A model generated the notes under the pieces. It ran no database searches. It saw only the letters and a list, made by a program, of their open reading frames with translations, and was not told the origin of the DNA. The position numbers and the translations under genes are program-made. From Candidatus Latescibacterota bacterium (GTDB lineage Bacteria; Latescibacterota; UBA2968), in assembly GCA_965220765.1 (NCBI GenBank), contig OZ244847.1, positions 2,862,066-2,926,065 on the forward strand: a DNA stretch of 64,000 nucleotides, written 5' to 3'. This document shows, piece by piece, positions 34,996 through 49,596 of this stretch (position 1 is its first letter; each line of letters begins with the position of its first letter).

Positions 34996-35036
34996 AAAAC
35001 CGCCCGTCAGATCGTTCTGGCGGGCGGTTTGTTTTT
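34996..35036. terminator. Bidirectional intrinsic terminator between rhaA and the convergent PhyH operon
   Basis: CCGCCCGTCAG (35000-35010) pairs with CTGGCGGGCGG (35017-35027; 11 bp, one G-U pair). The loop is 6 nt. An A-tract lies 5' and TTTGTTTTT lies 3'. Confidence 0.65.
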
Positions 35037-35079: not shown

Positions 35080-35901
35080 TCAAATCGTCAACGTCACGAA
35101 ATCCTTTTTTACGATCTCTTTTTCATGTGTATAGGATTGTGTCTCGAGAAGCTCTCGCGTTTCGGGCGCAAGCCTCGCCAGTATTGAATCGGGGTATTCG
35201 CGGATTTGTCGGTGATATTGCGGGCGATATCTGAGAATGAAGAAACGGCGATCTCGATCTTTGGGTTGCCAGGCCATTGCCCCATGTGTCATCAATTCTG
35301 TGGTTATGACAATATCACCAGCTCGAGCTGTGATATTCGCTACACCGAGGGGTACGTCTTTTTCGATCCACCCGTCGTTGAATACATCGGGTGGACGCTT
35401 AAAATCGCTTTTGTGCGATCCCGGTACGAGCAGCAATCCGCCATCTCCGGGCCAGACATCGGTGAGATAGATAAATACCACGAGGTCGTCGCAATAAATT
35501 TTGCCATCGTCGCAGCTATATCGGCAGCTATACGGACCAAAACTCTCGCGCGAGCAATGCAATCGATGAACGGGGTCTTTAGCCGTATTGATCCGCACTT
35601 CACCGCTGTTTAGCCTCGGTCGTCGCCCAGATACTTCCAGTACAATGGGCCAGAATGAACGGTGAAAGACCAACGCTTCCAGTACTTTGTCAAAAGCAAA
35701 AGCGTATTTGAATTGTGTGCGGTTTTTGTCAAATAATGAGGTCGAACGCCCAAATCCTTCGGGCAGTTCATCATCTGAGGCATTCACATACCGATCTATA
35801 GCCTGTTGTGCGGCTTTCAGTTCAGTTTGTTTAAGAAGTGCTTGTTCCAGATGCAAATATCCCATCATATCAAATAAATAGCGCTGTGCATCTGTCATCA
35901 T
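35080..35901 (-). CDS. Phytanoyl-CoA dioxygenase (PhyH)-family Fe(II)/2-oxoglutarate oxygenase-like protein, variant metal motif
   Basis: Start at MMTDAQ (35901), 5 nt after AGGAGG. It aligns by eye with its upstream paralogue (FIYLTDV / NYYLTDV; VPGSHK / IPGSHL; THG / WHRG; RRFFILRY / RSRYITQITY). It carries HCS where the paralogue has HQD. Confidence 0.8.
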   Translation of the reverse strand: MMTDAQRYLFDMMGYLHLEQALLKQTELKAAQQAIDRYVNASDDELPEGFGRSTSLFDKNRTQFKYAFAFDKVLEALVFHRSFWPIVLEVSGRRPRLNSGEVRINTAKDPVHRLHCSRESFGPYSCRYSCDDGKIYCDDLVVFIYLTDVWPGDGGLLLVPGSHKSDFKRPPDVFNDGWIEKDVPLGVANITARAGDIVITTELMTHGAMAWQPKDRDRRFFILRYRPQYHRQIREYPDSILARLAPETRELLETQSYTHEKEIVKKDFVTLTI

Positions 35902-35920
35902 AATTACCTCCTGTCTTTTG

Positions 35921-36769
35921 TCATCCATAAGCTCCATGATCCAAAAACCCGACGAGGCGTCTGAGTCTGGGGTTTGCGTTGCGATGGATTTGATCGGGCA
36001 TGGTGTAGTTCATAAAGGGATAGTATTTGTGCCCTATGAGCCGCCTGCCATAGGTGATTTGGGTGATGTAGCGGCTGCGATTGCTCTGATTTGGTCCCCC
36101 TCTGTGCCAGACCTGGTTGTTGAACATGATTACGCTACCGGCTTTGCCGAGGTTATAATGCACTTTGTCCTGCCATTTTTTCCAGGCATCAGTATTGAAA
36201 ACCTGACGCGGGTTTTCACCAATGAGATGTGAGCCTGGGATGACTTCTGTGCCGCCATGTTCGATTTTCGTCACATCGGTGAGATAATAATTGCAGGTGA
36301 ATACGAGTACGGGAAGGTGGATGTTTGTCGGTGGCTTGCCATCGGTGACAACATAATGCGGGGCGTCATCCTGATGCCAGGCGGTGAGGCCGCCGCCAGG
36401 GGGCGTGATGAAGGAGTTGTTGTGTATAACGTGACAATTTGCTTCAACAAGGGCTTCGGCAAAGCTGACGATGGGTTCGAGGTCAAACAGGTTGAGGTTG
36501 GCCTGGCTGTGTTCGAACATGCGATGGCACAGGCGGTGGCTGGCTTTGGAGCCTTGCGGATTGAGCTTGCCATTGGGGTCTTTATCTCGGCTGGTAAAAT
36601 GTGCGAGAGACCAGTCGAGGTCCGCTTTGAGTTGTGCGATGTGTTCTTCTTTTAAGACATCTTCGAGAAATAGAAATCCGTCTCTGTGAAATTGTTCTAC
36701 CCATTCGGAAATTTGGTCTGTATCGAGTAGATAATTGGATTCAAAGCGCTGATTTTGTGGTTTCATCAT
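35921..36769 (-). CDS. Phytanoyl-CoA dioxygenase (PhyH)-family Fe(II)/2-oxoglutarate oxygenase
   Basis: Motifs GFLFLEDVL, WHQDD (HxD), IPGSHL, the distal His in VWHRGGPN, and Arg in RSRY. Confidence 0.85.
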   Translation of the reverse strand: MMKPQNQRFESNYLLDTDQISEWVEQFHRDGFLFLEDVLKEEHIAQLKADLDWSLAHFTSRDKDPNGKLNPQGSKASHRLCHRMFEHSQANLNLFDLEPIVSFAEALVEANCHVIHNNSFITPPGGGLTAWHQDDAPHYVVTDGKPPTNIHLPVLVFTCNYYLTDVTKIEHGGTEVIPGSHLIGENPRQVFNTDAWKKWQDKVHYNLGKAGSVIMFNNQVWHRGGPNQSNRSRYITQITYGRRLIGHKYYPFMNYTMPDQIHRNANPRLRRLVGFLDHGAYG

Positions 36770-38804
36770 GGCCTCTATCGGTCAAGCCAATCACCAGGAT
36801 CGGCAAGGCATCCCGTATTTCGATTTGTGCGTTGCGAGACACTGTTTCGGTTTCTCCCGTGCATAGATGATAGATGCGAATAGGGCTGATGTCGAGTGAA
36901 AAATCGAGAGTATTGAGATCGAAAATATCACGAGCAGGTAGTATGAGAGCGAGCCTGCGATGGGTGTTGTTGAGATACAGGATGCGGTTGTTTTCCCATG
37001 TTTGTTCGCGGGGCTCTGTAAAAGTATTGGCGTGAACGGGACTGTTGATGAGCGTGTTCAGACAACGCAGAGTGTGAAAAGGTGCGCGGGGGTTGCAGAG
37101 GGTGTCGAGCAATCCATGTGTGACATCCATTGTGCGGTCAAAGTCGGTGAGTGGATCGACAAAGAGGCGTGTGCCTGGTTGGCGAACAATGGCAAATGTG
37201 GCTTCGGCAATTCGGCGGGCATTGGTGTTGTCGTTCTGCGCGTCTAATTCGAGTGAGATGTCTATGTGATCGATATTCGAGTATTTGCATTTGCTCAGGG
37301 ATTGGATATAAGTCCAGGGCGATTCGTTGGATGGTACGCGGCTGAGTACGCGCTGAAGGTGAATATCGGCGTTTTGGAGGGTCGCGTTCAGGCTTTCGAG
37401 TTCGTCGAGGTGATAACCTATTCGGGTTCGCAAGTGTTGTTTGCCGTGTACGCGTTCGTTGGGGATAATCGGGCAAATCGAGAGTTCGGCAAGCTTTGTA
37501 CATCGGTTGAGTGTTTCGCAAACTTCATCGGATGATAGCGAAGGATCAGATATCTGAATTTCCCAGTTCTGTATAAAATCGAGGTTGGCTTCGATGTATT
37601 CGGGCAATGAGGCGATGCGCGGTTCGAGGAATGTGGCAATGGGTGTTATTTCTTCGGAGCGGAGCATTTCGAGGCGCGTGCGCTGAAAGGAGTCGCGCAG
37701 GTCGCGCCAGGGAAAGCGCACAAATTTGGCGCCGAGTTCTATGCAGGCCAAGAAATGCTGGTCATTGCGCGCTTTTTGACGCACGACAGAGGGATATGCA
37801 ATTGGGAGTTCCGCAATGGGCGTGATGGGGTGGCGGAGGGTGAGTCCAACAGGTGAATCCAGATTGGCGGATGTGCAAGTGATGAGGTGGTCACGGGCAG
37901 GGCGTTTTATTTCGCCTTTTGTGTGGATAAAGTGGACATCGGTGTGATCGGCGCGTATGCGGAGGAGATAAAATCCGAGCTTGCCTGTGTCGTCTCGTCC
38001 CTGTTCGGGCGGTGGCGCACTGGCGTAGAGATGGCCGAACCCCGGGCGCGTAAAGGACGTAGAGGGAGTGATGAAATAGCGCGTTTTGTCAATTTTGTCG
38101 TAAAAAGGATAGTGTACGTGTGCTGCAAAGAGGAGTTCGATTCCGTATTTTTGAATCAATGCGAGGAGGCGGTCTCGATCTGGCGGGCTGATGTTGTCGT
38201 AGTGTCCCAATCCCGGCTCATTGTCATCCCAAAGGTAGAGGGGCAGGTGAAAAAAGAGAAAGAGCCGCTGGTTTTTGTGTTTTTCAAGGTCGGATTCAAA
38301 CCATTCCCACTGGTCGTCTGCTTCGGGGATTTTTGAGTTGAGGATCTGGGAATTGAGCACGATAAAGTGACACAGATCGCGGTCAAAACTGTACCAGGAA
38401 GGACCAAAGAGGTCGTGGAAGAATGCGAGCGATTCCGCGGTTGCCTCGTGGGTGGGCATGGTGGGATCGGTTTTGTCGCCGATATCGTGATTGCCGGCGA
38501 CATAGTGCGGATAAATATTGCAGGCGCGTATCTGATCGCGCGCTTCGACCATCGCGCGTTTGAAGTCCGGTGTTTCGGGATATTCCTGGACGAGGTCGCC
38601 CATGTGGATGACAAAATCGGCCTCAATGGACGCGACCTGTTCCAGGGCTATGCCGGCGCGTTGGGTTTGCACGCGGCGCGATTCAAATTCGAGGGGGCGG
38701 TCGCCAACGTCAATCATGTAATGCGTGTCGGCAATGACCGCGCATTCAAATTGAGCGGGGGGGAGGTGGGTTTTGTCGAAGCTTATTTTTCTTCCGCTTT
38801 CCAT
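36741..38804 (-). CDS. Calcineurin-like metallophosphoesterase fused to a ~380-aa domain of unknown function
   Basis: The N-terminal motifs appear in order: IADTHY, HMGDLV, AGNHDIGD, FFHLPL and AAHVH. Residues from about 310 to 687 have no motif I recognise. The gene overlaps the downstream PhyH gene by 29 nt and the upstream gene by 22 nt. Confidence 0.8.
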   Translation of the reverse strand: MESGRKISFDKTHLPPAQFECAVIADTHYMIDVGDRPLEFESRRVQTQRAGIALEQVASIEADFVIHMGDLVQEYPETPDFKRAMVEARDQIRACNIYPHYVAGNHDIGDKTDPTMPTHEATAESLAFFHDLFGPSWYSFDRDLCHFIVLNSQILNSKIPEADDQWEWFESDLEKHKNQRLFLFFHLPLYLWDDNEPGLGHYDNISPPDRDRLLALIQKYGIELLFAAHVHYPFYDKIDKTRYFITPSTSFTRPGFGHLYASAPPPEQGRDDTGKLGFYLLRIRADHTDVHFIHTKGEIKRPARDHLITCTSANLDSPVGLTLRHPITPIAELPIAYPSVVRQKARNDQHFLACIELGAKFVRFPWRDLRDSFQRTRLEMLRSEEITPIATFLEPRIASLPEYIEANLDFIQNWEIQISDPSLSSDEVCETLNRCTKLAELSICPIIPNERVHGKQHLRTRIGYHLDELESLNATLQNADIHLQRVLSRVPSNESPWTYIQSLSKCKYSNIDHIDISLELDAQNDNTNARRIAEATFAIVRQPGTRLFVDPLTDFDRTMDVTHGLLDTLCNPRAPFHTLRCLNTLINSPVHANTFTEPREQTWENNRILYLNNTHRRLALILPARDIFDLNTLDFSLDISPIRIYHLCTGETETVSRNAQIEIRDALPILVIGLTDRGHDETTKSAL

Positions 38805-39208
38805 TCGGCGATTTTTTCATCGGCTTTGCGGCGCAGTTCGCGGCCCTTGTCCGGGGTGGGGTCTTCTATGATGCCATAGACCTGGCGACCTTCGTGATCT
38901 TCGGGTAAGTATTCCGTAATGGGCATGCCTTCGGGGGTGACAAAGAGCAGGCAGTGACAGTATTTGAAAATTTTCATTTCGTCACAGGCACAGACCCATT
39001 CGCGGCTGCGTTCGAGTTCGGCCTTTTTGTCGGGATAAAAGTTGCAGGGGCAAAGTGGGCGGCCCAATTCATCGATGTTTTGTGCAAGGCCGTTGATGAC
39101 TGTGTCGGCAACTTCTCGGGTCGGATGCGGCGATGTCCCGGTTTTTTCCCAGTATTTTTCCGTGTATATCTGCATTCTTTTGAGGCTTTTTTCTGTGGGT
39201 TCGGACAT
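38783..39208 (-). CDS. Ferredoxin:thioredoxin reductase catalytic (beta) subunit-like protein
   Basis: Cys signature CPC-X17-CAC-X8-CHC (C53/C55, C73/C75, C84/C86; nt 38951-39052). The canonical FTR-B signature is CPC-X16-CPC-X8-CHC. The size is 141 aa. Confidence 0.8.
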   Translation of the reverse strand: MSEPTEKSLKRMQIYTEKYWEKTGTSPHPTREVADTVINGLAQNIDELGRPLCPCNFYPDKKAELERSREWVCACDEMKIFKYCHCLLFVTPEGMPITEYLPEDHEGRQVYGIIEDPTPDKGRELRRKADEKIAEWKAEEK

Positions 39209-39244
39209 GGCTTATACCTCCAGTTTTGGGATCTTGTGTTTGGA

Positions 39245-40050
39245 CTACAAGTGGCTGTTGAGGTAGTCCATAGATTTTCGGAGTTCTGCTCTGGCATCGC
39301 CCGGGGGAATGCTGCATTCAAAACCGCAGTAGTGTTCGTAGCCGATGTCGGATAGTGCTTTGAGCGGGGGACCAAAATCCGTGTGTCCATAGCCAGGCAA
39401 GATGCGATTGCTGTCGGCCAGATGTACATTGGCGATGTGTTTACCCCCTGCGCGGATGGCTTCGGCGAGGTCGGCTTCCTCAATGCTCATGTGGAAAAGA
39501 TCGGCCATGGTGGCGATGGAGGAACTGCCCACGGCTTCGCAGATTTCAACGCCCTGTGCAACGGTGCAGGGCCACCACTGTTCGTAGCGGTTCAGGGGTT
39601 CTATGATCAGGCGACTGCCGCACGCTTCGGCATGCGGTGCGATGTCTTGTTTGAGAATTTCGATGAGGAGATCTTTTTCAAGTGTAGATGTGCTGTACAG
39701 GGGCGAGAGGTCGGGAATGCGTTCGCCACCACCCATTTTGATGCCGAGGGGAAAATTACACCTATACCGCCGACTTCCGTACACAGAGTCAGGGCGTCGT
39801 TAATGGATTTTACGGCTGCGTTGCGTTCCTGGGGACGCGCGTCAAGCAGACCTTTACTGCCCCGGGAAGAGCAGATATTGGGCACGATACCCGTCGCGTC
39901 TGACGCTGCTTTGATCTCATCTGCAAAATCTGAGGTGCTGCTATTGGTGATTTCAATACCGGAAAAGCCGAGTTCTTCGAGTGCCTGGAATTTCTCCATC
40001 AGGGTGTTGCCAGGCGCCATGGGTTCACGAAGAGAATATTTGATGGTCAT
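39245..40050 (-). pseudogene. Sugar-phosphate isomerase/epimerase (xylose-isomerase-like TIM barrel), interrupted by a 1-nt frameshift
   Basis: Two overlapping ORFs (39607-40050 and 39245-39784) read as the two halves of one protein: ...TEVGGIGVIFP | LGIKMGGGERIPDL...IIEPLNRYE...VHLADSN.... The frames switch at the plus-strand G4A4 run (39748-39755). Adding one nucleotide gives a 268-aa ORF. Confidence 0.75.
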
Positions 40051-41155: not shown

Positions 41156-42203
41156 ACGCGATGTGTGACTTCAAAATTTTACGAGGCCGTCAAAATCAAG
41201 GGGGTCTCGATAATTGATGATATTGAGAAAGACACACATGGTATGAGTTAAGATTTTGGTATGCCACAAGTTTAATAGATGCCATACATCTCGCACTTTC
41301 ATGCGAGCAATATGTAAACGTTCTGTCAATTGTGCATAAACGGTTTCGACTAATCGCCTTGTGGCGTTCTTAGCTTTGGGCAAAATGAAAGGGGTGCGTT
41401 GTGGATCTTCTTTCATATTGGACTTTAAGGGCGTTTGGATGCGTATTCGGTAGGTATCAAAACACCTTTTTTGCCAGTCCAAATCCATAAATGCTTTATC
41501 TGCCAAGACGGTTGTCTCTCCCATTGTGCCATTGATGAGTGCGTCTCGGCAGTTCTTGTCGTGCCCATACGCTTTCAGGATCGGCGCGTGGACAATAAGG
41601 CCATAATCCGTGATCCTAAGGCCACCCTTAAAGCCAAAATACGCTTCGCCTTTAGCAGCACAGAAGCCTTTGGTAGGGGGTGGGAACGCAAAGACTGGCT
41701 CACTTTTAAATATCTTGCGCCTATGTCGCCTTGCCAGTTTACAGATTGGTAATGGCAAGGTATCTATGATCTGATACGGTGCCTGATGCCCTTCAAGATA
41801 GGCTACAATCCGCTGTTGCATCCACATCTTGACAGACCACAAATTGGCACATTGACGCACAAAGGCAGGGCGATCTTTCAAAGTAGGGAACCAGGCTATG
41901 AAATGTTCTTTCATCTGCTCATGAAGTCTCTTCTGGCTTGAATACCCCAAAAAGTGACCTACGATTTCTATGGTGAGGCATTCCGCATCGCTTAAACTGG
42001 GGTCAAAGCCAGCACGCCGGGGCTTGCCATGCACCTCACAGAAAGCTGGATAGAGATCCTCTTCAATAAAACAGTAGATTGCAATGACAAAAAGTTCTAA
42101 ATTATACATCGGAGGTTCCTTTCGTTGGATGGCTTCTTGTTTATTGGACAATCCAAGATAGCCGAGGAACCTCTTTTTGTCTATTTAAAGTCACACATCA
42201 CGT
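41156..42203 (-). mobile_element. IS982-family insertion sequence (about 1.05 kb) with terminal inverted repeats and target-site duplication
   Basis: The ends are ACGCGATGTGTGACTTCAAA (41156 onward) and the reverse complement of 42184-42203, ACGTGATGTGTGACTTTAAA; they match at 18 of 20 positions. Flanking direct repeats are TAAAATAAAA at 41147-41156 and 42203-42212 (8-10 bp; the exact length is ambiguous because the sequence is AT-rich). A single transposase ORF lies inside. Confidence 0.8.
41171..42109 (-). CDS. IS982-family DDE transposase
   Basis: IS982-like blocks are present: IAIYCFIEED, IIDTLPLPICKLARRHRRKIF, AAKGEAYFGFKGGLRITDYGLIV, AYGHD, VLADKAFMD, RRLVETVYAQL. ATG at 42109 (MYNLELF) follows AAAGGA. 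The listed ORF extends to 42151. Confidence 0.9.
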   Translation of the reverse strand: MYNLELFVIAIYCFIEEDLYPAFCEVHGKPRRAGFDPSLSDAECLTIEIVGHFLGYSSQKRLHEQMKEHFIAWFPTLKDRPAFVRQCANLWSVKMWMQQRIVAYLEGHQAPYQIIDTLPLPICKLARRHRRKIFKSEPVFAFPPPTKGFCAAKGEAYFGFKGGLRITDYGLIVHAPILKAYGHDKNCRDALINGTMGETTVLADKAFMDLDWQKRCFDTYRIRIQTPLKSNMKEDPQRTPFILPKAKNATRRLVETVYAQLTERLHIARMKVRDVWHLLNLWHTKILTHTMCVFLNIINYRDPLDFDGLVKF

Positions 42204-47496: not shown

Positions 47497-49596
47497 TCAC
47501 TCACGAGAGAGGTGTGGCAGATAACCTTGTTGCTGGAGTATTTGAATCAGGGATTCGGGGTTTGCCGCATTGTTGAGGCTCGCAGTGGTTGGAGAAATGC
47601 GGTCGTCCAGTGCCTGGGCAATGCGGGGTTGGGCGTAGAGTTCGTCGAGCAATTCTCGCGTGGCGGTTTTGACACGTCCGGTGGCTGGAATAATTTCGAT
47701 CTCGCCGTATTTGTCGTCACATTCTGCAATTAAAGTATCGACCATGTCGGGCAGGCCACTCGCGCTGTGTTGCGTCAAAAATGTGCGTATCTCGTCCCCT
47801 GACAAACCGTGTGCAAATGCGCGGAGGATCGAGTCGCGCGAGAGATGGAAACACGCCATCACATCCTGTGTTTTGAGGTCGCTGAGGATGCACAGTCTGA
47901 GATAGTGCGCGCAGGGGAGATCTGGTGGGGATAGGACTTCAAAATTGGGCTGTACAACAAATTTTGCCTCTGAATTTTGCTGGGGTATTTGTTCTGTTAG
48001 TGCATCGTCATCGGTGTCGTGCAATAGCGCGTAGCCCGCAGGGGTGATCTGAAAGACCGCCCTTTTGCTGTGTTGCAATGGCATGGAGAAATTGGGGAAG
48101 TTGCCCACGCGAACAACGCCCATATAGGTGAGCGCACCTGTGATGGTGCGGCGCAGCAATTCATCGGCGGTGGTTCCGGTATGGGATGGGTCTTTGACGA
48201 AATGCCGAAAAGGTTCTGAAAGTCGCGTCAGAAATTGATAATACGCTGGGTATTTTATCCATGTGTCGGTGGGACAGTGCCGAAGACTTCGCACGATTTC
48301 ACTGCGGATATTTTTTAGTACTTGCATTCGGGCACTGGTGGCTTTGGTGCGGTCGGAAGACCACTCATTCCACCGCTCGCTGTGAGACCAAAATTCAAAG
48401 CACGCCTTGCGCGTGTCGATGATTTGCCCTATCCGGGTGCCGGCGCCCGGGACGGTATGCCAGGCTGCATCATGGGGTTTTATCAGTCCTGTGGTTTCGG
48501 CAAAGAGTGTGAGAAATTCAATATAGCCCGGATCGTCCTGGATATGGCAGTATTTGTTCGCGTCGCGCAAATCGCTTTTGGATATGCCGCCGTGTTTGAG
48601 TTTGCGAGGCAAGCGTTGCGCAATAATGCCGAGCAATGTGGTCAGATCCCGGATGAGAAAGGCGGTATTTTCGCGTATCGCGGTGGGAGCGGCGTCGGAG
48701 GTTTCGAGGAGGGTTTCGATACTGCTTTCGAGTTGTCCCCCCTGGGATTGGGCGATTTTGGATAGGGCAGCGCGCAGATCTGAAGCGAGATATATCGCCG
48801 CGTTGGGGGCGTGAAGATCGCGGTTCGGCGCGTAAAAGATCGGCATTTTCCAGAGCATGTCTTCCAATTCGCGGACTGCGGATTCCCCCAATTTGTCGGC
48901 GACTTCACTACGTGTGATTGCGTTGGCAGGGAGGAATAAATCGAAGATGGCGCGGCGGTCTTCGCTGAGTGTGTTGAGGTAGGCGTGTAGCGTTTTTATA
49001 TCGAGCAGGGCATCTCTTATGGCGTTGGATACCATGGGTTTGCGCGTGTCTAAAAGGTTCAGGTCAATCTGATCTGCAAAAGCGCGGAGCAAACCCACAG
49101 AGACGGGTTTCATGATGGCGAGCAATCGGCCCTGATCTGCGTCGGGGATGGGGATAGATTTGAGTAGCGATTCGGGAATGCCAATCAGGACACACGAATC
49201 GTCCAGTGTGTGTGCGTCTCGAAATACGAGGCCGGTCAGATCACTGATTTGTGCATGGAGACGGGGAAGAAATCCGTTGGCAAATTTTTCAACAACTTCG
49301 CTTTCTAAAAGCTCGCCTCCCTCGGCGGCGAGGGTCTGTACCATCGCGCGCTGTTCAGGCGATAGGGCACAGAGGCACCTGGCCACGTGGTCGGGATCGG
49401 GAAGTACGCGGCAGAGCGCGTCGGCGAGGCCGGTTTTGTTGCTGCCACCGGGATCAATACCCACGTCGCGGGCGAGTTGACAGAGCGTGCTGAAGGGATA
49501 TTGTGTGAGTACGGCGCGTAGCTTCATAATGGAAAGTTGTGAATTGTGGGGAGATAGGACCGGCTTATTTGTCTGTTTTGATGTGCATTGATGCAA
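47497..49596 (-). CDS. Helicase-associated protein with p52/Tfb2-like C-terminal domain (probable XPB partner)
   Basis: The C-terminal segment VQPNFEVL...LSRDSILRAFAHGLSGDEIRTFLTQHSASGLPDMVDTLIAECDDKYGEIEI resembles the p52/Tfb2 C-terminus and the bacterial helicase-associated (Helicase_C_3-type) domain. The listed start is TTG; an ATG at 49527 (MKLRAVL) is an alternative. Confidence 0.65.
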   Translation of the reverse strand: MHQCTSKQTNKPVLSPHNSQLSIMKLRAVLTQYPFSTLCQLARDVGIDPGGSNKTGLADALCRVLPDPDHVARCLCALSPEQRAMVQTLAAEGGELLESEVVEKFANGFLPRLHAQISDLTGLVFRDAHTLDDSCVLIGIPESLLKSIPIPDADQGRLLAIMKPVSVGLLRAFADQIDLNLLDTRKPMVSNAIRDALLDIKTLHAYLNTLSEDRRAIFDLFLPANAITRSEVADKLGESAVRELEDMLWKMPIFYAPNRDLHAPNAAIYLASDLRAALSKIAQSQGGQLESSIETLLETSDAAPTAIRENTAFLIRDLTTLLGIIAQRLPRKLKHGGISKSDLRDANKYCHIQDDPGYIEFLTLFAETTGLIKPHDAAWHTVPGAGTRIGQIIDTRKACFEFWSHSERWNEWSSDRTKATSARMQVLKNIRSEIVRSLRHCPTDTWIKYPAYYQFLTRLSEPFRHFVKDPSHTGTTADELLRRTITGALTYMGVVRVGNFPNFSMPLQHSKRAVFQITPAGYALLHDTDDDALTEQIPQQNSEAKFVVQPNFEVLSPPDLPCAHYLRLCILSDLKTQDVMACFHLSRDSILRAFAHGLSGDEIRTFLTQHSASGLPDMVDTLIAECDDKYGEIEIIPATGRVKTATRELLDELYAQPRIAQALDDRISPTTASLNNAANPESLIQILQQQGYLPHLSRE

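Follow-up and report, generated by a model that had tools for sequence, protein, structure and literature searches.

What does the catalytic subunit of ferredoxin:thioredoxin reductase (FTR) do in a bacterium that is not a phototroph and has no variable subunit to go with it? Homologues of the catalytic subunit (FTRc) that stand alone in non-phototrophs are known and hardly characterised. Here we study one of them, encoded in a stretch of 64,000 nucleotides from Candidatus Latescibacterota bacterium (assembly GCA_965220765.1, contig OZ244847.1, positions 2,862,066 to 2,926,065). This whole stretch is called the window below, and plain coordinates refer to it. The gene lies on the minus strand at 38783..39208, is present in a single copy in the genome and encodes a single-subunit FTRc homologue of 141 residues, P0001, described here from its open reading frame and translation, Pfam, PDB comparisons and an AlphaFold2 (AF2) model. 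On balance we find it rather likely that P0001 works as a monomeric ferredoxin:thioredoxin reductase in general thiol redox, and its genus probably has no other thioredoxin reductase.

P0001 is a genuine homologue of the FTR catalytic subunit. The Pfam profile PF02943 (FeThRed_B) matches it over profile positions 2-90 of 106 with a score of 70.9 bits and an E-value of 1.1e-19, the gathering cut-off being 22, and FeThRed_B is the sole Pfam domain of the protein. When PDB sequences are searched with phmmer, the catalytic chains of the plant and Synechocystis FTR (7bzk, 1dj7, 2puk) match with E-values between 1.7e-20 and 5.5e-18. The motifs follow each other in the order LCPC, 17 residues, CAC, 8 residues, CHC. 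The CPC-x17-CAC-x8-CHC block occupies 38951..39052 on the minus strand, with the codon of C53 at 39050-39052 and that of C86 at 38951-38953, exactly where the original prediction, an earlier reading of this DNA, had placed it within a 141-residue reading frame.

In the HMMER alignment to 1dj7_A, residues C53, C55, C73, C75, C84, H85 and C86 of P0001 fall on positions 55, 57, 74, 76, 85, 86 and 87. In the Synechocystis enzyme Cys55, Cys74, Cys76 and Cys85 are the cluster ligands, Cys57-Cys87 is the redox-active disulfide and His86 is the catalytic histidine. From the alignment to these positions of known role, C53, C73, C75 and C84 of P0001 are predicted to be ligands of a [4Fe-4S] cluster, while C55 and C86 are predicted to form a redox-active disulfide, with H85 as the catalytic histidine. 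The seven residues are invariant or nearly so across both the subfamily of P0001 and the classical FTRc proteins, and in alignment A3 they are nearly invariant. The earlier reading had already called the protein an FTR catalytic-subunit homologue, and had named a profile search and an alignment to FTR catalytic chains among its checks. Both bear it out: the profile match is significant, and all six cysteines and the histidine map onto their FTR counterparts. Further, the reading frame has no in-frame TGA and a cysteine at every redox position, and a ribosome-binding site, GGAGG, can be read directly on the minus strand at 39217..39221, 8 nt 5' of the ATG.

The fold agrees with the sequence. 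An AF2 model of P0001, built from an alignment of 30 sequences, has a mean pLDDT of 90.2. Residues 1-95 of the model superpose on 7c3f_P with a Z-score of 14.4 and an rmsd of 1.2 Å over 94 residues at 42% identity, and the Z-scores on 1dj7 and 2puk are 13-14. In Foldseek the model matches the FTRc fold with an E-value of 1.5e-8.

The thioredoxin system was traced through the whole genome, which is 97.9% complete. The profile of the FTR variable subunit (PF02941) has no match genome-wide, although it did match Synechococcus as a control. That no variable subunit is adjacent, as the original prediction stated, is thus true of the entire genome, and the host is a non-phototroph. There is one canonical thioredoxin, TrxA (L110:2249-2575:-), a protein of 108 residues with WCGPC and 121 bits to PF00085. 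It is encoded about 1.19 Mb from the FTR gene, in line with the earlier statement that no thioredoxin is adjacent. MsrA and the large subunit of ribonucleotide reductase (RNR) are also present. A two-subunit 2-oxoacid:ferredoxin oxidoreductase is found, while a NifJ-type pyruvate:ferredoxin oxidoreductase, considered as a source of reduced ferredoxin, was not found in the genome. The 2Fe-2S ferredoxin domain PF00111 has seven matches, most of them within larger reading frames. No NADPH-thioredoxin reductase (NTR), TrxB, is detected in the genome: the best TIGR01292 match reaches 62 bits where 343 are required, and the same search recovered TrxB above this threshold in 13 of the 14 control genomes. 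Since a WCGPC thioredoxin is encoded, as are MsrA and RNR, and TrxB is not, P0001 is probably the only thioredoxin reductase, with a housekeeping function.

Two other proteins were considered for this role and rejected. The best TIGR01292 match in the genome is a 758-residue fusion of Pyr_redox_3/Pyr_redox_2 and Fer4 (G000:C1:561609-563882; L112:610-2886:+), which is 84-99% conserved in the genus and absent from the TrxB-less sister genus g6 (0/13). Because it is missing there it was rejected as a general replacement of TrxB, and the FTRc homologue is left as the one consistent candidate. The other is a TrxR-like protein of 186 residues (G000:C1:2130215-2130775; L111:416-976:+), which has FAD-binding parts only. 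It matches TIGR01292 at positions 2-113 and 239-296 and has neither the NADPH domain nor a CxxC.

The distribution of the two reductases among relatives is complementary. Among 41 relatives at the level of the order, the two genes exclude each other: the FTR gene is present in 34, all without TrxB, and TrxB in four (G021, G024, G026 and G036), all without the FTR gene. The other three, which are fragmentary, contain neither gene. Across the phylum 151 genomes were sampled evenly, and TrxB is present in 4 of the 44 FTR-positive Latescibacterota and in 95 of the 107 FTR-negative ones. The absence of TrxB is not an assembly gap, as many of the genomes without it consist of a single contig and are 96-99% complete. 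Such complementarity points to a general role as thioredoxin reductase.

How the protein would work can be sketched from its homology to the Synechocystis and plant FTR. Reduced ferredoxin, likely supplied by the 2-oxoacid:ferredoxin oxidoreductase, would dock on one face of P0001 and give single electrons to the [4Fe-4S] cluster that C53, C73, C75 and C84 are predicted to hold. The cluster would break the neighbouring C55-C86 disulfide. C86 would then be briefly bonded to the cluster while C55, assisted by H85, attacks the disulfide of a thioredoxin on the opposite face, and a second electron would free the reduced thioredoxin. In our evolutionary reading, an ancestor would have had both systems, as cyanobacteria do, and these Latescibacterota would have lost the NTR and kept the ferredoxin-driven reductase. 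A wider proposal, which we put forward tentatively and with slightly more doubt than belief, is that a lineage of at least two families of heterotrophic, polysaccharide-degrading Latescibacterota has dropped TrxB and runs its whole thioredoxin system on ferredoxin by means of a monomeric FTRc, with a conserved C-terminal tail replacing the phototroph-specific variable subunit. If so, cellular thiol redox would report the state of the ferredoxin pool, that is carbon catabolism by way of 2-oxoacid oxidoreductases, and not that of NADPH. It would be a non-photosynthetic counterpart of light/dark signalling in chloroplasts.

The tail in question is a C-terminal extension specific to the subfamily, residues 96-141 (38786..38923, minus strand), as defined by the subfamily alignment and the AF2 model. 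It follows the CHC..TPEG region, has a core of the form PITEYLPEDHEGRQ.YG...DPTPDKGRE and continues as a variable charged helix. All subfamily members keep it, while classical FTRc proteins are without it. Structural matches to the classical chains accordingly stop near residue 95-96 of P0001, and only the distant ferredoxin:disulfide reductase (FDR) structures 7pwe and 4tpu align, loosely, as far as residue 116-117. AF2 nonetheless models the extension with pLDDT values higher than 90 as far as about residue 120. Searched alone against PDB sequences with phmmer it has no match. A Foldseek match to 7c3f_V (34 columns, 44% identity, E 3.1) was considered as a sign that the tail mimics the variable subunit, and was dropped. 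In 7c3f every third letter denotes a catalytic chain (A, D and P among them), and V, which falls in this series, is probably one that is poorly ordered. The conserved tail may stand in for the missing variable subunit, by shielding the cluster or by stabilising the monomer.

P0001 belongs to a very highly conserved subfamily that is found far outside its own phylum. We collected 2289 homologues, the best 120 of which are 72-100% identical to it, and 432 GTDB species representatives encode a relative. Within the genus the identity is 92-100%, and among members from Latescibacterota, Gemmatimonadota, Binatia, Methylomirabilota, Zixibacteria, Thermodesulfobacteriota and Planctomycetota it is 73-82%. 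Among representatives of 50% identity clusters only 20 are below E 1e-30, and the next tier is of the classical FTRc type, at about 40-47% identity. In a quick tree of 82 sequences a long branch with full support parts the subfamily from the classical FTRc proteins. Its inner backbone is not resolved (48 of 74 forks open) and gives no ground for proposing horizontal transfer of the subfamily. An identity of 73-82% across phyla, whatever the neighbouring genes, fits conserved and general partners. In one genome of the same genus, G020, which is single-contig and TrxB-less, the FTR gene (G020:C1:1205412-1205830, the same locus as L040) is split near its 5' end, with residues 2-41 and 29-141 in different frames.

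In the window the FTR gene is the second of five tightly packed genes on the minus strand. Upstream lies a xylose-isomerase-like TIM barrel (AP_endonuc_2, similar to IolO and sugar epimerases) at 39245..40050, recognised by Pfam matches of its two halves and by alignment. Downstream follow a metallophosphoesterase of 687 residues (36741..38804, Pfam PF00149), a first PhyH-family dioxygenase (35921-36769, Pfam PF05721) and, as the last gene, a second PhyH paralogue (35080-35937, also PF05721). From the FTR gene onwards these genes overlap by 22, 29 and 17 nt. The first of these overlaps had been noted in the original prediction and is confirmed here: the ATG at 38804 is the only canonical start upstream of the essential D-x-H motif (..AVIADTHY..) of the metallophosphoesterase. 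A terminator scan gives no terminator-like site on the minus strand over 35080-40050, and inside the operon promoter and terminator signals are not above the shuffled expectation. At the end of the operon there is a hairpin terminator at 34997..35030, which the scan reports on the plus strand only. The run of A before its stem is a run of T on the minus strand, so it would serve the minus-strand operon. With overlapping genes, no internal terminator-like site and this hairpin, the TIM barrel, FTRc, metallophosphoesterase and the two PhyH genes are clearly one transcription unit in this genus.

The operon that the earlier reading described stands, with the corrections that the FTR gene is on the minus strand and that the first gene of the operon is frameshifted here. 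The TIM-barrel gene is in two frames, of 147 and 179 residues, while it is an intact gene of 270 residues in relatives. Near 39745, where it breaks, the alignment shows it to be 7 nt shorter than in three close relatives. A loss of 7 nt is atypical of a homopolymer error, so the gene may be a real pseudogene. In the last gene, four cysteines spaced roughly as C-x9-C-x3-C-x6-C are invariant in 14 close orthologues, and they may form a metal site. The broader gene context, with sulfatases, a heparinase-like enzyme and RhaA, fits a polysaccharide degrader. A DDE transposase (DDE_Tnp_1_3, 41171-42151, minus strand) lies between the FTRc operon and genes for a sulfatase, an aldo-keto reductase and a DUF6785 protein. 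In family f2 a Helicase_C_3/WYL gene is directly upstream of the TIM-barrel-FTRc pair, and in the window a Helicase_C_3 gene at 47497-49596 is parted from this pair by inserted genes.

To see how general this arrangement is, open reading frames were called in 80 species-level loci of the subfamily and clustered, and the recurrent clusters were annotated. The neighbours vary strongly. AP_endonuc_2 is next to the FTR gene, upstream and on the same strand, in 23 of the 80 loci, all of Latescibacterota type. Among the same-strand neighbours in this phylum it is the one conserved best; it has five invariant cysteines, and its best NCBIfam matches are IolO and sugar epimerases. In 35 loci the FTR gene adjoins a 2-hydroxyacid dehydrogenase (2-Hacid_dh) similar to glyoxylate reductase (399 bits to the model PRK13243), which in every case lies on the other strand, in convergent or divergent orientation. 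These loci come from metagenome-assembled genomes labelled Gemmatimonadota, Binatia, Methylomirabilota and Thermodesulfobacteriota, some phylum labels being other or doubtful, and they lie within L037-L101 (e.g. L090:6872-7864:-, L038 and L074). In the Gemmatimonadota-like set an alternative complex III operon is often found on the other flank of the FTR gene. A luciferase-like (LLM) oxidoreductase (Bac_luciferase) is downstream in 10 loci, from Binatia and Methylomirabilota. The metallophosphoesterase is downstream on the same strand in 15-16 loci, essentially those of the window's genus together with L036 and L070, and PhyH adjoins the FTR gene in 12-13 loci, within the genus only.

We also searched the whole genomes of the 41 relatives for orthologues of the metallophosphoesterase. 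In the sister genus g6 some 500 kb separate them from the FTR gene. Three genomes without the FTR gene (G021, G022 and G024) have an orthologue, and in two members of the genus that do have the FTR gene (G010 and G018) the search gave none. Being unlinked in g6, found without FTR and missing from two members of the genus, the phosphoesterase neither requires nor tracks the FTR gene. The operon was probably built up within this lineage, by the addition of genes to an older pair of TIM barrel and FTRc.

A number of observations weigh against a general thioredoxin reductase. The complementarity with TrxB rests on few independent events, in families f1 and f2 and partly in genus g15, since related genomes are not independent, and in g15 itself the FTR gene and TrxB often occur together. 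Outside Latescibacterota, 24 of 25 subfamily-bearing genomes have TrxB or a homologue near the cut-off (326-402 bits), and the last, G158, has only a 205-bit match. The subfamily is therefore not a general replacement of the NTR, and another conserved substrate is possible. The residues beside the active cysteines differ from classical FTRc (CPCNFY against CPCRHY, and CAC against CPC). The tight overlapping operon of the genus is left unaccounted for. Finally, the split gene in G020 may be an indel of the long-read assembly or a sign that the gene is dispensable.

These points lead to the question of other substrates. One possibility, on the whole an unlikely one, is that P0001 is a ferredoxin:disulfide reductase whose substrate is not thioredoxin but a small disulfide or an atypical protein similar to thioredoxin or glutaredoxin, tied to sugar-acid or glyoxylate metabolism. 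The recurring neighbours in different phyla would suit this: the 2-Hacid_dh immediately beside the FTR gene in several phyla, the IolO/hydroxypyruvate-isomerase-like TIM barrel with its five invariant cysteines upstream on the same strand, and the LLM oxidoreductase downstream. So would the presence of the subfamily beside TrxB outside Latescibacterota, as well as the tail and the unusual residues by the active cysteines. However, the 2-Hacid_dh does not once share the strand of the FTR gene, does not adjoin it in Latescibacterota and has no conserved cysteine; our genome contains just 44%-identical paralogues and no close orthologue of it, and it was rejected as a disulfide target. The TIM-barrel partner is frameshifted here while the FTR gene is intact. 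Further, FTR and NTR together are normal in cyanobacteria and plastids (PMC9025218), so their coexistence is no argument against thioredoxin reduction.

Less probable still is what the original prediction proposed, a dedicated Fe-S/disulfide relay and thiol switch serving the neighbouring enzymes. In this reading P0001 would use electrons from ferredoxin to reduce a regulatory or catalytic disulfide in the metallophosphoesterase or the cysteine-rich PhyH, and would so gate a catabolic or tailoring pathway by redox state. The packing of the same-strand genes, overlapping and with no internal terminator, agrees with such a switch, and most species of the genus share this arrangement. The metallophosphoesterase has 11 well-conserved cysteine columns, three of them fully invariant, and the second PhyH has its four invariant cysteines; there is also precedent for an FDR serving one enzyme, the class III RNR of Methanosarcina barkeri (cited in PMC6262447). 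Yet conserved cysteines in near-identical orthologues carry little weight, and the neighbourhood survey, one of the checks named with the prediction, speaks against it: adjacency to either enzyme is limited to the genus and a few relatives, the subfamily remains 73-82% identical whatever the neighbours, and P0001 is far better conserved than, and phyletically independent of, the metallophosphoesterase and PhyH. Genuine co-transcription does mean that a local extra role of the FTR gene in this genus is possible. The frameshift in the first gene of the operon and the split FTR gene in G020 could also be taken as signs of decay, with P0001 as a remnant without reductase activity, for instance an Fe-S scaffold or sensor. 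This we consider very improbable, given an intact reading frame with a strong ribosome-binding site, seven invariant catalytic residues and identities, within the genus and across phyla, that imply strong purifying selection.

A general ferredoxin:thioredoxin reductase, the reading we prefer, has consequences beyond this locus. In a lineage with thioredoxin and without TrxB, an FTRc-like protein that is the only recognisable thioredoxin reductase obtains a concrete physiological role, and one that can be tested. The TrxB-less lineage is the part that most deserves to be followed up. If the role is confirmed, ferredoxin-linked thiol control would reach from chloroplasts and cyanobacteria to uncultured heterotrophs, and it would define a subfamily of monomeric FTRs that carry a tail of their own, which would help to understand how the variable subunit came to be needed. 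The locus also gives a word of caution, as the genus-specific operon context is a poor guide to function.

Compared with known systems, P0001 is closest to the classical FTR of Synechocystis and plants. They have the fold in common over residues 1-95 (Z 13-14.4, rmsd 1.2-1.7 Å, 41-43% identity) as well as the CPC...CxC...CHC constellation, which maps to Cys55/57/74/76/85/87 and His86, and a like mechanism is therefore expected. In several respects the two differ. The classical heterodimer has an encoded variable subunit (FTRv), an exact CPC-x16-CPC-x8-CHC motif and a short C-terminal helix. P0001 has no FTRv in its genome, a loop of 17 residues and not 16 between the first and second motif, CAC in place of CPC, CPCNFY in place of CPCRHY beside the active cysteine, and, where the short helix would be, an extension that is conserved and about 45 residues long. 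Its host is a non-phototrophic polysaccharide degrader, in contrast to the oxygenic phototrophs with the classical enzyme.

The FDRs, which have an FTRc-like [4Fe-4S]/disulfide core and no variable subunit in non-phototrophs (PMC6262447), are more remote. MA1659 of Methanosarcina acetivorans (PDB 4TPU) and the Grx-FDR of Desulfotalea psychrophila (PDB 7PWE) likewise lack the variable subunit, while their similarity to P0001 is low in sequence (E 0.001 to 0.036) and in structure (Z 7.2-8.2, rmsd 3.7-4.2 Å), and their fused rubredoxin-like or glutaredoxin domain has no equivalent in P0001. Some FDRs have particular clients, such as MaTrx5 or the Methanosarcina barkeri RNR mentioned above (cited in PMC6262447). 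The FtrB family double-selenoprotein (NF041072) has weak homology to the FTRc core (40.9 bits, cut-off 160), and the two selenocysteines expected there are all cysteines in P0001.

In the searchable literature, where Balsera et al. 2013 is represented by a summary, we found neither a tailed, highly conserved FTRc subfamily nor its occurrence in heterotrophic Latescibacterota, Gemmatimonadota and Binatia, and Latescibacterota are not linked there with FTR or with the loss of TrxB. The kind of protein is already known, as FTRc homologues without FTRv occur in non-photosynthetic bacteria and archaea, and stand-alone FTRc and FDR enzymes reduce thioredoxins in non-phototrophs (PMC9025218, PMC6262447). 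According to the summary in PMC9025218, Balsera et al. 2013 (Planta 237:619) described FTRc homologues without FTRv in deeply rooted non-photosynthetic bacteria, proposed to pass electrons from ferredoxin to thioredoxin. These were microaerophilic chemoautotrophs, and a link to regulation of the reverse TCA cycle was drawn. P0001 is like them in being one catalytic subunit without FTRv in a non-phototrophic host, and it is unlike them in coming from heterotrophic Latescibacterota, where it apparently replaces a lost NTR, and in having its close relatives in Gemmatimonadota, Binatia and Methylomirabilota.

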